The notes: generated from the letters alone by a model not told the origin. A DNA stretch of 64,000 nt from a virus (IMGVR_UViG_2706795930_000001:1-64000), one strand, 5' to 3'; positions 5,072-49,861 are shown, counted from the first letter of the stretch. Program-made: numbers and translations.

Positions 5072-5143
5072 TGCCGCATAGCTCAATTGGCAGAGCTCCC
5101 GACTATTAACGGGTGGGTCCTGGTTCGAGTCCAGGTGCGGCAA
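5072..5143 (+). tRNA. tRNA-Asn-like gene with ATT anticodon and a 1-nt deletion in the anticodon stem (possibly a pseudo-tRNA); no encoded CCA
   Basis: Acceptor TGCCGCA/TGCGGCA, D arm GCTC/GAGC, T arm CCTGG-TTCGAGT-CCAGG; anticodon arm CCCGA-CTATTAA-CGGG. Confidence 0.75.
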
Positions 5144-46073: not shown

Positions 46074-46343
46074 ATGGGAATCAAGACCCAGCTACTCCTC
46101 GACGAGGAGGCAAAGACCTACTCGATCGCAGTGGACCCCAGTTCGACGACCGACGTCGCGATGGACACAATGCCGGGGCGGAGCACCGCACAAAGCATTG
46201 TGCGACAGGAACTCTCACGCCACCTCGCGTTGAGGACCAAGGTCGCCGAGGACGCCGCCGCCGTGGCCGTCACTGGGCTCATGGAGTGCTTCCACCTCAC
46301 ACCGAAGACCATCGAAGAGTTCGAGAAGGGGCGGCAGCGATGA
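46074..46343 (+). CDS. Hypothetical protein (may extend upstream to TTG 45939)
   Basis: GAAAGG RBS. Confidence 0.6.
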   Translation: MGIKTQLLLDEEAKTYSIAVDPSSTTDVAMDTMPGRSTAQSIVRQELSRHLALRTKVAEDAAAVAVTGLMECFHLTPKTIEEFEKGRQR

Positions 46344-46564
46344 CGACCCGGCAAGGACGTTGGGTGCGGTGCGCCTGCGGGAAGCGCGGGTACGAAACTC
46401 GCAAGCAGGCCAAGGAATCTCGCAGCACCATGGGCGGAGCGAAGGGCACGAAGATGAACGCCTACCGCTGCCCCCGGGCCCCGGAGTCGAACCCCTGGCA
46501 CCTCGGGCACCTCAACAAGCAGTCGAAGATCTACGGCCGACCACACTGGCTCGCCGACCGCTGA
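46340..46564 (+). CDS. Small Zn-finger protein
   Basis: CACGKRGY.TRK.A...AYRCP...WHLGH. Confidence 0.7.
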   Translation: MTTRQGRWVRCACGKRGYETRKQAKESRSTMGGAKGTKMNAYRCPRAPESNPWHLGHLNKQSKIYGRPHWLADR

Positions 46565-46576
46565 CCCACAGACCAC

Positions 46577-46609
46577 GAAGGCCCCCTGTCATCGCGACAG
46601 GGGGCCTTC
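46577..46609. terminator. Bidirectional hairpin terminator between the accessory operon and the tRNA
   Basis: Perfect 14-bp stem GAAGGCCCCCTGTC / GACAGGGGGCCTTC. Confidence 0.8.
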
Positions 46610-46613
46610 TGCG

Positions 46614-46687
46614 TGCCCCGGGCAGGGCTCGAACCTGCGACCTAGTCATTATGAGTGACCGGCTCTAACCGACTGAGCTACCGGGGC
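46614..46687 (-). tRNA. tRNA with CAT anticodon, most likely tRNA-Ile2 (lysidine type), alternatively elongator Met; no encoded CCA
   Basis: GCCCCGG-TA-GCTC-AGTCGGTTA-GAGC-C-GGTCA-CTCATAA-TGACT-AGGTC-GCAGG-TTCGAGC-CCTGC-CCGGGGC-A; G1-C72 paired (not an initiator), C4-G69 and C5-G68. Confidence 0.92.
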
Positions 46688-46710
46688 GCCGGACTACCGT
46701 ACCGCGAGCG

Positions 46711-46985
46711 TGCCCGCAGTTGCCCGCAGCCCCGCCCTCATTTTGCAGCCCGCCCTCATTCGAGATTGCGGCAACATTGCGGGCAGGAGGCCCTCGGGAG
46801 CCCCGGAAAGCTCGTCTACCAGGCCAGACTGTGCGCCGAGGTTTCTTCTAGCGAAGGATTATGAGTTCGTGGCATAATGAATGCATACGCTGCATCTTCC
46901 TGTCAAACGTGCAGGTCAAGAGGCATATTGTATGATCTAGGTATGACAAAGAGTGCCTTGAGATTGCGGGCAACATTGCGGGCAG
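46711..46985. mobile_element. Putative attP: paired arm-type repeats (TGCGGGCA) flanking a short core GGATTATGAGT (46856-46866)
   Basis: TGCCCGCAG x2 (46711-46729), TTGCGGCAACATTGCGGGCA (46766-46785), TTGCGGGCAACATTGCGGGCA (46965-46985), just upstream of the integrase. Confidence 0.65.
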
Positions 46986-46996
46986 AGGAGATAGCC

Positions 46997-47212
46997 GTGG
47001 GGATGCTGGGGGCGAAGGTCTACCGCGGGCAGCTCGACGAGCCCACGAGCCGCGGCGAGCGGCGGTCCCTCAAGCGGCGGTGGCGGCGCGTCGAGAGCGC
47101 CCAGGCCCGGGACTGGGAGGCCGAATACATCGAGCGGGAGCCTCCGCCATGCCCCTTCGATTCGCCGGCCCTCGACGTAGATAACCCCCCTTTCACTTTT
47201 TGTACTCATTAG
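46997..47212 (+). CDS. Small Arg-rich protein upstream of the integrase
   Basis: AGAGGAG RBS, GTG start; MGMLGAK...KRRWRRVE..QARDW. Confidence 0.6.
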   Translation: MGMLGAKVYRGQLDEPTSRGERRSLKRRWRRVESAQARDWEAEYIEREPPPCPFDSPALDVDNPPFTFCTH

Positions 47213-47223
47213 GAGACTTACAA

Positions 47224-48609
47224 ATGGACGAGAATGGCAATCGCTCCGAATACGGCACCGGTGGCGTTCGATACCGAGCTGATCGGGATGTGTGGATCGC
47301 GGCGAAATCTGTCGAGGACGGCCGTGGCCGAAAGAAGCGGATCGAGGGCCAGGGCCCGACGAAGACTCAGGCGATCGCTGAACGTGACAAGAAGATCCGC
47401 GACTTCATCCGCGGCAAGCAGAAGACAAAAGGCAAGGGCACTGTCGCCGAGTGGCTAGAGAAGTGGATGAACGAGATCGCGGTCGACAACGTCCGCCCGA
47501 CAACACTGAAGAGCTACGCGTCGGCGATCAAGTATCAGATCGTCCCGACCATCGGGCACATGAAGCTGAAGGACCTGGAGCCGGCCGACGTTCGCTTCAT
47601 GCGCAAAGAGGTTGTCAACTCGTACCTAGACAAGAAGAAGGGCGTGAAAGGAGTGAAGCCTCGCGACGAGGGGACCGGTGCTCGCCGAGCGCGCTACGCG
47701 CAGGTGGTGTTGAGCAAGGCCCTCGCCGACGCGGTGACTGAAGAGATCCTCGACCGCAACGTGGCGGACAGCGCGTACGTGAAGAAGACCGCGGTGGTGG
47801 CCAAGCCGCAGAAGGCTCTGAATGCCGAGCAGGCGAAGCATCTGCTCCGCACTTCAATCGAGAACCGTGACCGGTACGCATCGCGTTGGGCAACCGCTCT
47901 CATCACCGGCACGCGCCAAGGAGAGGTTCTCGGACTGACGTGGGACCGCGTGGACTTCACTCGCAAGGAGATCCACTTCACCCGCCAGCTTCAGGTGCTA
48001 GAGAACGAGCACGGCTGCGGAGAACAGATTGGTGACCGCGTGTACCCGTGTGGCATGAAAGTCCCGCGTGCATGCCCTGAGCGCAAGTTCAAGGTGACCG
48101 AGGAGTGGCGCGACCAGATCGATGTTCTCGAAGGGTCGCTCGCGATGACGCCGACAAAGACGAAGATGTCCGCCCGGGCGCTGCCGATGCCCGCGCCGCT
48201 CGAACAGATCCTACGGGCGCATCAGTTGGATACCGCCGGCGAGCCGAACCCGCACAACCTTGTCTGGCACCAGGAGAACGGAAAGCCGATTCAACCGCGT
48301 GCCGACTACGAGGCGTGGGTAGAAGCGCTCGACAAGGCCGGGCTGGATCGAATCAAGCTCCACTCCACGCGTCACTCAGCGGCGAGCATCATGAGCGACA
48401 TGGGTATCGACCGACAGGTGATCATGCAGATCCTCGGGCACACGAATCTGAACACCACGGCCGGTTACGCCGCGGTCGGCGACAGCTTCCGTCGCGAAGC
48501 ACTCGGTCGCATGGGCGGCCTGCTGGATTTGTTCAGCGCAGCGCCGCGGGAAGTCGAAGGTGATGTGATCACCGACGACAGCCGCCAGCAGAACGTCATC
48601 GGAGCGTGA
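47224..48609 (+). CDS. int: Tyrosine integrase
   Basis: GTRQGEVLGLTW (R), HSTRH, ILGH...Y; N-terminal arm-binding domain; AGGAG RBS. Confidence 0.96.
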   Translation: MDENGNRSEYGTGGVRYRADRDVWIAAKSVEDGRGRKKRIEGQGPTKTQAIAERDKKIRDFIRGKQKTKGKGTVAEWLEKWMNEIAVDNVRPTTLKSYASAIKYQIVPTIGHMKLKDLEPADVRFMRKEVVNSYLDKKKGVKGVKPRDEGTGARRARYAQVVLSKALADAVTEEILDRNVADSAYVKKTAVVAKPQKALNAEQAKHLLRTSIENRDRYASRWATALITGTRQGEVLGLTWDRVDFTRKEIHFTRQLQVLENEHGCGEQIGDRVYPCGMKVPRACPERKFKVTEEWRDQIDVLEGSLAMTPTKTKMSARALPMPAPLEQILRAHQLDTAGEPNPHNLVWHQENGKPIQPRADYEAWVEALDKAGLDRIKLHSTRHSAASIMSDMGIDRQVIMQILGHTNLNTTAGYAAVGDSFRREALGRMGGLLDLFSAAPREVEGDVITDDSRQQNVIGA

Positions 48610-49363
48610 CGGCGCGATGACGCTTGAACTCTCGGGGGCGCACCTCTCGCCGGCGGATGATGATGGTCATGATGAGCGCGATCGCGAGCATCGCACCCAC
48701 TCCGAACCACAGGTAGCGTCCGGTGAGCTTGAACGCCTCAGGGGGCGGCATCGTGTTGTAGACGAAGCCCAGGGTGATGAACTGCTGGCCGACGAGCGTC
48801 ATGATCCCACCGAAGCAGAAGTAGGCGGCGAGAGTGAGCCGCTCCGGGAGGTTGTCGGTCTTGGTGGTGATGCTCGCGTAGATGAAGAAGATGCCGGCCA
48901 TCACGCCGTAGATCCCGAGGGTGACGAAGTAGAGGTTGAGTGCGGCGTCGGATGGAACGAGCCGGTAACTGGGGATCTGTCGATTGCTCGCAATCGGCGA
49001 GATCGCGTAGCAGAGGCTCATCAACCCGATGCCGGCCGCGCCGGACGCAATGATGGACGTGAGCAGATCCTCGCGGTCGAGGGAGACAGCTACGTGACAG
49101 AGCAGCAGGATGCACATCGCGACCGAAATGAGGTCGGACAGCAACTCGGGGAGGTTGGGAAGTCCAGTGAGGGACTGCAAGGCGGGATCGAGAATGCCTT
49201 CGCCGAGTCCGGGACTGAGAAGGATCGAAATGATCGGCACCGTGAATGCCACGGCGGTCATATACCAGGTAGTCCGGTCGCGCCAGTAGAGCACGGCGCG
49301 GGTCGTAGCGATCGTGATCAGAGCCAACAGCACGACCCAGCGAACTGGGTCCTCAGGATTCAA
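48596..49363 (-). CDS. Multi-pass (about 7 TM) membrane protein coupled to the repressor gene
   Basis: Hydrophobic helices, LTGLPNLPELL motif; TTGA overlap with the repressor stop. Confidence 0.75.
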   Translation of the reverse strand: MNPEDPVRWVVLLALITIATTRAVLYWRDRTTWYMTAVAFTVPIISILLSPGLGEGILDPALQSLTGLPNLPELLSDLISVAMCILLLCHVAVSLDREDLLTSIIASGAAGIGLMSLCYAISPIASNRQIPSYRLVPSDAALNLYFVTLGIYGVMAGIFFIYASITTKTDNLPERLTLAAYFCFGGIMTLVGQQFITLGFVYNTMPPPEAFKLTGRYLWFGVGAMLAIALIMTIIIRRREVRPREFKRHRAVTLR

Positions 49364-49743
49364 CTCAAGAACCTCTTTCCTCGTGACCTCTTACGTCCGG
49401 CCGGCTGCTCACCTCGCTCTCGGTCTACAGCGCGGGCAGTCAGCTCCCTGAGCAATGCAACGTCAGGCAGGGATTCAATAGGCTGTTCATTCACCCCCGC
49501 AGTAGCAACTACGTCGTCCATCTCAAGGTGCCCGAGCTCGATGAGCATGAAGCACCGAGAGACATGGAAGTAGTCACACATCACCAGGACCTCTTCGATC
49601 CTGAATCCCTCCCGGCCGGTGATCCTGCGCGAGATCGTCGAGACGTGAACATCCAACGCGTCGGCGATCTCGTTGCGGGTGACCTCCCGGCCCAGCGATC
49701 TAGCAAACACTTCTAGGGATTGCATCGCACCACTCCAATCCAT
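49360..49743 (-). CDS. HTH (XRE-like) immunity repressor candidate
   Basis: VTRNEIADALDVHVSTISRRI; near the integrase; start uncertain. Confidence 0.75.
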   Translation of the reverse strand: MDWSGAMQSLEVFARSLGREVTRNEIADALDVHVSTISRRITGREGFRIEEVLVMCDYFHVSRCFMLIELGHLEMDDVVATAGVNEQPIESLPDVALLRELTARAVDRERGEQPAGRKRSRGKRFLS

Positions 49744-49861
49744 CGTTACATGTGGGTTAAATCTGGAACTCGCCCCACCGGGGCTGTGCGCAAAATCTGT
49801 GACCAGATGTGCACACCTGCACCCGCGAAGGCGCTCCATTATTGCAGGTCAGTGCCACATC

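Follow-up and report, generated by a model that had tools for sequence, protein, structure and literature searches.

tRNA-dependent lysogeny was defined and proven for Fionnbharth and the Cluster L phages, in which a phage tRNA of the target's isotype is required for viable integration (Guerrero-Bustamante and Hatfull, mBio 2024, PMC10865867). In Fionnbharth (K4) and Cluster L, a core of about 10 bp lies in the anticodon loop of a single-copy tRNA gene, which for Fionnbharth is the tRNA-Lys-TTT of M. smegmatis. The tRNA of Fionnbharth is encoded at a distance from attP, overlapping gene 37 on the opposite strand, and its own promoter has been demonstrated. The same study mentions pairs of arm-type sites flanking the cores and lists Cluster DL, with Mollymur, as a case of tRNA-dependent lysogeny at the tRNA-Ile2-CAT gene of G. 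terrae with no reconstruction of the tRNA (PMC10865867, Table 2 and Fig. 6); its Gordonia cases are bioinformatic predictions. It also reports that the DL phage Daredevil, which is without the tRNA, forms clear plaques (PMC10865867). The F2 phage Yoshi, assigned to tRNA-Ile2-CAT (attB-13) in that study, has an attP core of 43/45 bp that rebuilds the tRNA's 3' half, and it encodes no tRNA itself.

Here we analyze an integration module in a 64-kb stretch of viral DNA (the window), which belongs to a virus genome record of 92,580 bp. Like Fionnbharth and the Cluster L phages, the window phage combines an integrase of the same family with a short, here predicted, core in the anticodon loop of a single-copy tRNA. 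Unlike that of Fionnbharth, its tRNA lies close to attP, at a distance of 168 nt to the core and in the orientation of the host gene that integration would break, and the predicted target is tRNA-Ile2 instead of tRNA-Lys-TTT. With Yoshi it has in common a related integrase family and an orthologous predicted target, of which it shares only 11 bp. We estimate at roughly 85% the probability that the module belongs to a Cluster DL Gordonia phage and serves tRNA-dependent lysogeny at the host tRNA-Ile2(CAT) gene.

RESULTS

Layout of the integration module

The window phage is a Cluster DL Gordonia phage, a relative of Bantamvirus, with approximately 97% identity to SpeedDemon and approximately 80% to Mollymur and DatBoi, all three of which were isolated on G. 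terrae 3612. These three relatives have a gene order in common, namely, a minus-strand tRNA-Met(cat) followed by a small ORF and by the genes for a tyrosine integrase, a membrane protein, and an immunity repressor. The features of the window are listed below.

46577 to 46609, unstranded: strong hairpin separating the tRNA from the convergent gene upstream (14-bp perfect arms; RNA fold, -34 kcal/mol, z = -5.1)
46613/46614 to 46687, minus strand: intact phage tRNA(CAT), tRNA-Ile2-like, proposed replacement (ARAGORN; Rfam RF00005, 68.4 bits, E = 1.4e-14)
46696 to 46701, minus strand: candidate tRNA promoter, marked by the -10-like hexamer TACGGT (TANNNT), which begins 14 nt upstream of the tRNA 5' end
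46711 to 46729, minus strand: arm-type repeat pair, CTGCGGGCA twice, inverted relative to the other pairs; tRNA-side arm of attP (repeat search)
46731 to 46760, plus strand: two direct copies of CCCGCCCTCATT between arm-type repeat pairs; a single copy is conserved in relatives
46763 to 46786, plus strand: arm-type repeat pair, ATTGCGGCA and ATTGCGGGCA; tRNA-side arm of attP (invariant in the four-phage alignment)
46847 to 46879, unstranded: 33-bp island around the core, without variation between the window, SpeedDemon, Mollymur, and DatBoi (alignment)
46856 to 46866, minus strand: predicted common core ACTCATAATCC, equal to positions 31 to 41 of G. terrae tRNA-Ile2(CAT), i.e., the anticodon loop plus A31 and T39-C41
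46961 to 46986, plus strand: arm-type repeat pair, ATTGCGGGCA twice; integrase-side arm of attP (invariant in the four-phage alignment)
46997 to 47212, plus strand: 71-aa ORF between attP and int, with GAGGAG just before it
47224 to 48609, plus strand: tyrosine integrase of the Fionnbharth/LeBron family (PF00589, E = 2.8e-23; PF14659, E = 6.3e-12)
49360 to 49839, minus strand: immunity repressor-like HTH protein (phrog_19097 transcriptional repressor, E = 4e-12)

The ORF at 47224 to 48609 contains a Phage_integrase and a SAM-like domain, and its product is 79% identical to the integrase of Mollymur, 61% to that of OneUp, and 53% to that of BrutonGaster. Its homology to the Fionnbharth integrase (35.7% identity, E = 7e-66) assigns it to the integrase family for which tRNA-dependent lysogeny was first found. 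The gene adjoins an attP of roughly 280 bp, in which arm-type sites are located on both sides of the core. The 71-aa ORF between attP and int gave no Pfam or PHROG match; judged by its position it could encode an excision factor, and at this position DatBoi has an annotated excise of unrelated sequence. The repressor-like gene, whose homologues in SpeedDemon and Mollymur are annotated as immunity repressors, is by homology the context of a temperate phage.

On the plus strand, the core reads GGATTATGAGT, and its reverse complement occurs once in the 64-kb window. The sequence on both sides of the 33-bp island diverges in Mollymur and DatBoi. Five of the six copies of the arm-type repeat TGCGGGCA fall within 46711 to 46984, in pairs that are inverted at 46711 to 46729 and direct at 46763 to 46786 and 46961 to 46986, while the exact TTGCGGGCA has three copies in 64 kb, all within 46777 to 46984. 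All elements of the initial annotation were recovered here: it had described arm-type repeats flanking a core whose reverse complement is a CAT anticodon loop without a following tRNA 3' half, and an intact tRNA(CAT) with a GGTCA/TGACT stem some 170 bp along the same strand. Indeed, the clustered TGCGGGCA pairs lie on either side of 46856 to 46866, the core is accompanied by no partial tRNA and has flanks that match the host tRNA at chance level only (see below), and ARAGORN and Rfam both identify the tRNA, which starts 168 nt past the core end, downstream and on the same strand.

A further conserved block, CTGACCTGC-N-C-N-TTTGAC...GC-N-GCGT-N-TGCA, is located at 46880 to 46925 (minus strand), on the integrase side and 10 to 60 nt upstream of the core in the sense of the tRNA. 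The block is also found in the phage sequences L002, L194, L010, and L011 and hence in five of five phages, with Ile2-type and Lys-type cores alike. It may represent a promoter or the site at which an accessory protein binds.

Two tRNA-like genes in total are present in the phage genome, the CAT tRNA and a decayed tRNA-Asn. The latter (5072 to 5143, plus strand) scores 54.3 bits with Rfam and has an abnormal anticodon according to ARAGORN. Measured against the tRNA-Asn(GTT) that SpeedDemon and Mollymur carry, it shows a G34->A change, a deletion of T39, and three further changes within about 40 nt, and so it looks like a tRNA-Asn in decay. The intact tRNA-Asn of SpeedDemon and Mollymur resembles a G. 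terrae tRNA-Asn gene that lies about 220 bp from the tRNA-Ile2 attB in the host.

The core matches a single-copy tRNA gene of G. terrae

The host genome used was the complete sequence of G. terrae B62, which was reached with the 3' half of the BearBQ tRNA-Gly, read by eye, as a pattern; an Rfam scan of the BearBQ and Cucurbita attP regions as a route to the host genome gave no clear result. B62 has 45 tRNA matches, among them three CAT tRNAs: the initiator, one in a Tyr-Thr-Met cluster, and a lone gene adjoining tRNA-Asn. The initial annotation had pointed to a host tRNA(CAT) containing the core, and exactly one such gene exists in G. terrae, the lone one, with the anticodon arm GCGGA-CTCATAA-TCCGT that includes the exact ACTCATAATCC. 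The CAT tRNA of the Tyr-Thr-Met cluster (arm CACGA-CTCATAA-TCGTG) shares the whole 7-nt loop but only ACTCATAATC, 10 of the 11 core bases. By our own arithmetic, the chance expectation for an 11-mer identity between a region of the size of the intergenic one (about 540 bp, both strands) and any of the three host CAT tRNAs is about 8e-4. Since tRNA-Met has the full loop and all but one of the core bases, the choice of target must depend on stem positions, and the core alone does not prove the target.

The host CAT tRNAs were labelled by searching the phage collection with the 3' half of each. For the lone gene, the matches lie in unannotated attP regions of two F2 phages, Yoshi and Che9d, and for the gene in the Met cluster, in the attP of the Arthrobacter phage Kumotta, which has been assigned to tRNA-Met-CAT (PMC10865867). 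From these matches it follows that the 11-bp identity is to the single-copy tRNA-Ile2; by orthology, and by the tRNAscan-SE calls of the cited paper, the lone CAT gene is the tRNA-Ile2 ortholog. Single-copy among the 45 tRNAs of B62, this tRNA would be essential, given the general need to decode AUA. Simple identity rules from E. coli (C4:G69 and C29:G41) failed to separate the two host CAT tRNAs, and orthology to the attP sequences of Yoshi and Kumotta was used instead.

The exact Ile2 anticodon arm with the core is present in 62 of 92 Gordonia species genomes, and the Met arm is invariant in 90 of the 92. One of the Gordonia chromosomes (L195; G009:C77, 9826 to 9850) has in addition the hairpin GCGGACTCATAATCCGC, which copies the anticodon arm of tRNA-Ile2 perfectly, is located between genes, after the end of a gene, and has no surrounding tRNA. 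As a chromosomal intergenic hairpin, this second arm copy of G009 (C77:9830) was ruled out as an attP or a junction. Probably, it is a chance or a terminator hairpin, and it could act as a secondary attB for these phages.

Integration would not reconstitute the host tRNA

When anchored on the core, the attP flanks are identical to the host tRNA-Ile2 at 8 of 31 positions on the 5' side and 10 of 34 on the 3' side, which is chance level, and the same holds for SpeedDemon, Mollymur, DatBoi, and OneUp. An Rfam tRNA scan found no partial tRNA beside the core. Likewise, BLAST of 46560 to 47240 against the whole G. terrae genome returned no other meaningful attP match, the significant matches being solely those of the phage tRNA to host tRNAs. 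With a core of 11 bp, no longer match between attP and the host, and flanks at chance level, integration cannot rebuild the tRNA but would leave two non-functional fragments of the host gene.

Searches of several collections returned no integrated copy of such a phage. Close relatives of the integrase, sought for prophage junctions, were not found in a species-representative genome collection, and the integrase homologues in a large protein collection were confined to phages or short metagenome contigs (L011 to L013), with no integrated prophages. Among the 92 Gordonia genomes and in the species-representative collection there was neither a split tRNA-Ile2 nor a DL-like prophage, with tRNA-Ile2 intact in all 62 carriers of the arm.

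The phage tRNA resembles host tRNA-Ile2 except in its stems

The phage tRNA, with the anticodon arm GGTCA-CTCATAA-TGACT, is identical to that of Mollymur and DatBoi. Its best match in the G. terrae genome by BLAST is tRNA-Ile2 (86% over 59 nt, E = 1e-12), ahead of all other tRNAs. Compared position by position, 56 of 74 nucleotides are identical to host tRNA-Ile2, and every one of the 18 differences falls at a paired stem position with pairing kept; they affect five pairs of the acceptor stem, three of the anticodon stem, and one of the T stem. Both tRNAs have the same D arm and variable region and agree in all loops. By this comparison, and by the tRNAscan-SE call of the earlier study, which treats the identical tRNA of Mollymur as tRNA-Ile2-CAT (PMC10865867), the isotype of the phage tRNA is probably Ile2, matching the predicted host target. 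A ranking of all host tRNAs by global identity to the phage tRNA was misleading, because with the replaced acceptor stem, Arg, Lys, and Thr tRNAs scored level with Ile2; local BLAST and the position-wise comparison resolved this tie. AUA is so rare in the phage (1.3 per 1,000 codons, 24 of about 18,500) that codon supply is unlikely to be the reason for keeping the tRNA.

Candidate expression signals

The initial annotation had placed a terminator after the tRNA, and the strong hairpin at 46577 to 46609 agrees with this, although it lacks a U-tract on the strand of the tRNA (minus) and was thus missed by a simple scan for intrinsic terminators, which called nothing in 46300 to 47300. The hairpin is likely a bidirectional, I-shaped terminator.

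A scan for consensus sigma-70 promoters in the same region (46300 to 47300) found none. A TANNNT hexamer precedes the tRNA by 12 to 21 nt in each of the five independent upstream sequences (those of the window type, SpeedDemon, OneUp, BrutonGaster, and L011), as against a background in the phage genome of 7.8e-4 per position. Together with the active promoter of the Fionnbharth tRNA, these conserved hexamers favor expression of the phage tRNA mainly from a promoter of its own, most likely the one marked by TACGGT (46701 to 46696), with read-through from the host as a possible but not a needed contribution.

The arrangement is conserved across clusters

The CQ2 phages OneUp and BrutonGaster resemble the window phage in having a core, arm-type sites, and a co-oriented cognate tRNA 138 to 173 nt downstream, as well as in the conserved block upstream of the core. 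The core of OneUp is that of the window phage and lies within an 18-bp stretch, GAACTCATAATCCTTCGC, that the two have in common, and BrutonGaster and the metagenomic L011 have the tRNA-Lys-TTT equivalent of this core. Apart from belonging to another cluster, they differ from the window phage in the target of BrutonGaster, tRNA-Lys-TTT, and in the tRNA(CAT) of OneUp, which is of the SpeedDemon type. The spacer between the core and the co-oriented tRNA is 168 nt in the window, 173 nt in OneUp, 177 nt in SpeedDemon, 138 nt in BrutonGaster (Lys), and 162 nt in L011 (Lys). In all seven phages compared, the isotype of the neighboring tRNA tracks that of the attP core, with CAT tRNAs accompanying the five Ile2 cores and TTT tRNAs the two Lys-TTT cores.

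Despite 97% identity in the surrounding sequence, SpeedDemon has a different tRNA(CAT) at the same place, of the OneUp type, which argues that function, i.e., position and anticodon, is conserved rather than sequence. In the corresponding segment of SpeedDemon (L001, 3273 to 3862, against window 46286 to 46687), an HNH endonuclease gene is found together with a tRNA(CAT) that is about 90% like that of the CQ2 phage OneUp. From this comparison, the slot for the replacement tRNA beside attP appears to be exchanged between phage clusters.

L011 itself is a 56-kb contig (Logan SRR8946420) of an undescribed phage, with an integrase that is 55% identical, a core consisting of a 21-bp tRNA-Lys-TTT anticodon arm, and a tRNA-Lys of its own; by these features it is a further candidate for tRNA-dependent lysogeny, outside the named phages. 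In BearBQ (L008, 1 to 790), a Ro-like RNA-binding protein is encoded, and beside its gene are weak Rfam matches to YrlA (Y RNA-like) and to a nematode sRNA family, which cover a region with a tRNA-like segment. This suggests a phage Ro/Y-RNA module.

Possible recoding of the anticodon stem

The stretch common to the phage tRNA and the core is limited to ACTCATAAT (9 bp), as compared with 10 bp for the tRNA of the SpeedDemon/OneUp type. A comparable pattern is seen in L011, whose attP includes the anticodon arm of Gordonia tRNA-Lys-TTT in full (21 bp). Its tRNA-Lys is identical to G. terrae tRNA-Lys-TTT at 67 of 73 positions, with all six differences in the anticodon arm and the junction of the variable loop, and the host arm is kept in each of the 32 Gordonia genomes that carry the tRNA-Lys body of L011. 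The anticodon arm of the window type was found in no CAT tRNA of the 92 Gordonia genomes or of 401 sampled genomes of the family; its nearest matches in the 92 Gordonia genomes are arms of tRNA-Thr(CGT), with three mismatches, in seven genomes.

The suggestion of the initial annotation that a recoded stem would spare the substitute from being an integration target gains some support from these comparisons. Such stem changes would fit selection to differ from attB, escape from nucleases that act on the anticodon arm, or descent from a host outside the sampled ones, and we put these forward as hypotheses. Functional cores in this integrase family are only 8 to 11 bp long (PMC10865867), so that losing one or two matching bases is not obviously protective. 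Tentatively, and with more doubt than confidence, the sequences could be read as follows: replacement tRNAs would be copies of the host target with a changed but still pairing anticodon stem (in the window also a changed acceptor stem), which might block recombination with the phage's own tRNA 210 bp away or evade a nuclease, and the conserved, co-oriented placement at 138 to 177 nt might add expression from the host promoter. In its discussion and its passages on promoters, the earlier study makes no mention of host-promoter co-orientation or of differences restricted to stems (PMC10865867).

DISCUSSION

In the mechanism that we propose, the tyrosine integrase would bind the TGCGGGCA arm-type repeats on either side of the core, and the crossover would occur between the 11-bp core ACTCATAATCC and its identical counterpart within the anticodon arm encoded by the tRNA-Ile2 gene, which is single-copy in G. 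terrae, as suggested by their match in silico. The host gene would be split, with attP carrying neither half of the tRNA. One junction would then consist of the host promoter and tRNA-Ile2 positions 1 to 41, followed by 168 nt of phage arm, the phage tRNA, and the hairpin, and at the other, phage DNA would be fused to tRNA positions 31 to 76. The phage tRNA(CAT), presumably lysidinylated and charged with Ile, would make good the lost tRNA-Ile2 and be required for the survival of the lysogen. The initial annotation had likewise proposed that integration breaks the host's tRNA-Ile2/Met gene and that the phage supplies a substitute, and the core match, the chance-level flanks, and the co-oriented CAT tRNA support this in silico.

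Two other readings of the locus have to be weighed. The target might be the elongator tRNA-Met(CAT), or both CAT tRNAs, with the phage tRNA acting as a Met tRNA. The tRNA-Met of the Tyr-Thr-Met cluster does share ACTCATAATC and a complete anticodon loop with attP, 10 bp is also the core length counted for OneUp (PMC10865867), and ARAGORN as well as the GenBank records call the phage tRNA "Met." The identity to tRNA-Ile2 is, however, one base longer and includes C41, which is kept in every attP of the integrase group, whether of the Ile2 or the Lys-TTT type, and only two anticodon bases set the Ile2 arm (GGA...TCC) apart from the Lys-TTT arm that the sister integrases use. Moreover, the phage tRNA has the D arm, loops, and variable region of tRNA-Ile2 and a T arm one base pair off, while tRNA-Met is not among its closest matches, and the published assignment is to Ile2 (PMC10865867). 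Taken together, this makes a Met target very improbable. We regard it as equally improbable that the tRNA lies beside attP by chance or serves another purpose, such as codon supply in lytic growth or as a decoy or replacement in the face of host anticodon nucleases, with integration elsewhere or the short match not being the crossover site. Phage tRNAs often serve in codon supply or against nucleases. The stem changes would also be compatible with escape from a nuclease reading the anticodon arm, and anti-defence has been raised as a possible selective force (PMC10865867). Against these possibilities stand the extreme rarity of AUA in the phage, the isotype of the tRNA following the attP core in seven of seven phages, the clear plaques of the DL phage that is without the tRNA (PMC10865867), the position of the core, between arm-type repeats and beside int, and the lack of any other match between attP and the G. 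terrae genome.

How the phage tRNA would be expressed in a lysogen is a separate matter within our preferred reading of tRNA-dependent lysogeny at tRNA-Ile2. The initial annotation had the tRNA placed to be read from the host tRNA promoter, and its geometry is right: after integration, the host promoter and positions 1 to 41 of the split gene would lie 168 nt upstream on the same strand with no strong hairpin in between, a layout that is conserved in OneUp, BrutonGaster, and L011. Such read-through is not required, given the -10-like hexamers in all five upstream sequences and their low background frequency. In addition, the tRNA of Fionnbharth has an experimentally active promoter of its own far from attP, and the tRNA would be needed already at the moment when integration inactivates the host gene. 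We therefore consider it rather unlikely, if conceivable, that read-through from the tRNA-Ile2 promoter is the main source of the phage tRNA in lysogens.

That the locus fits tRNA-dependent lysogeny, as first suggested from the sequence of the window, agrees with the published reading for Cluster DL, as represented by Mollymur (PMC10865867). Mollymur belongs to the same cluster as the window phage and has an integrase that is 79% identical, an identical 33-bp island, an identical tRNA(CAT), and the same predicted target. The window phage differs from it as a separate isolate that is closest to SpeedDemon, which itself has another tRNA(CAT) and an HNH gene. The core length also differs, being given as 9 bp for Mollymur (PMC10865867) as opposed to the 11 bp that we count against G. 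terrae B62, a discrepancy that may stem from the strain or from the way of counting. With an identical core island and an identical tRNA in another DL member, the mechanism is already known; the tRNA-dependent lysogeny of the window phage is that published for a fellow member of its cluster, and it adds little new biology.

In summary, our analysis provides a concrete candidate attB for DL and OneUp-type phages, the single tRNA-Ile2 gene beside tRNA-Asn in G. terrae, which is useful for Gordonia integration vectors and for predicting which hosts are open to lysogeny. What is new is small, namely, the way in which the stems are altered and the conservation of a -10-like element, which bear on the avoidance of self-targeting and on the expression of replacement tRNAs, respectively.
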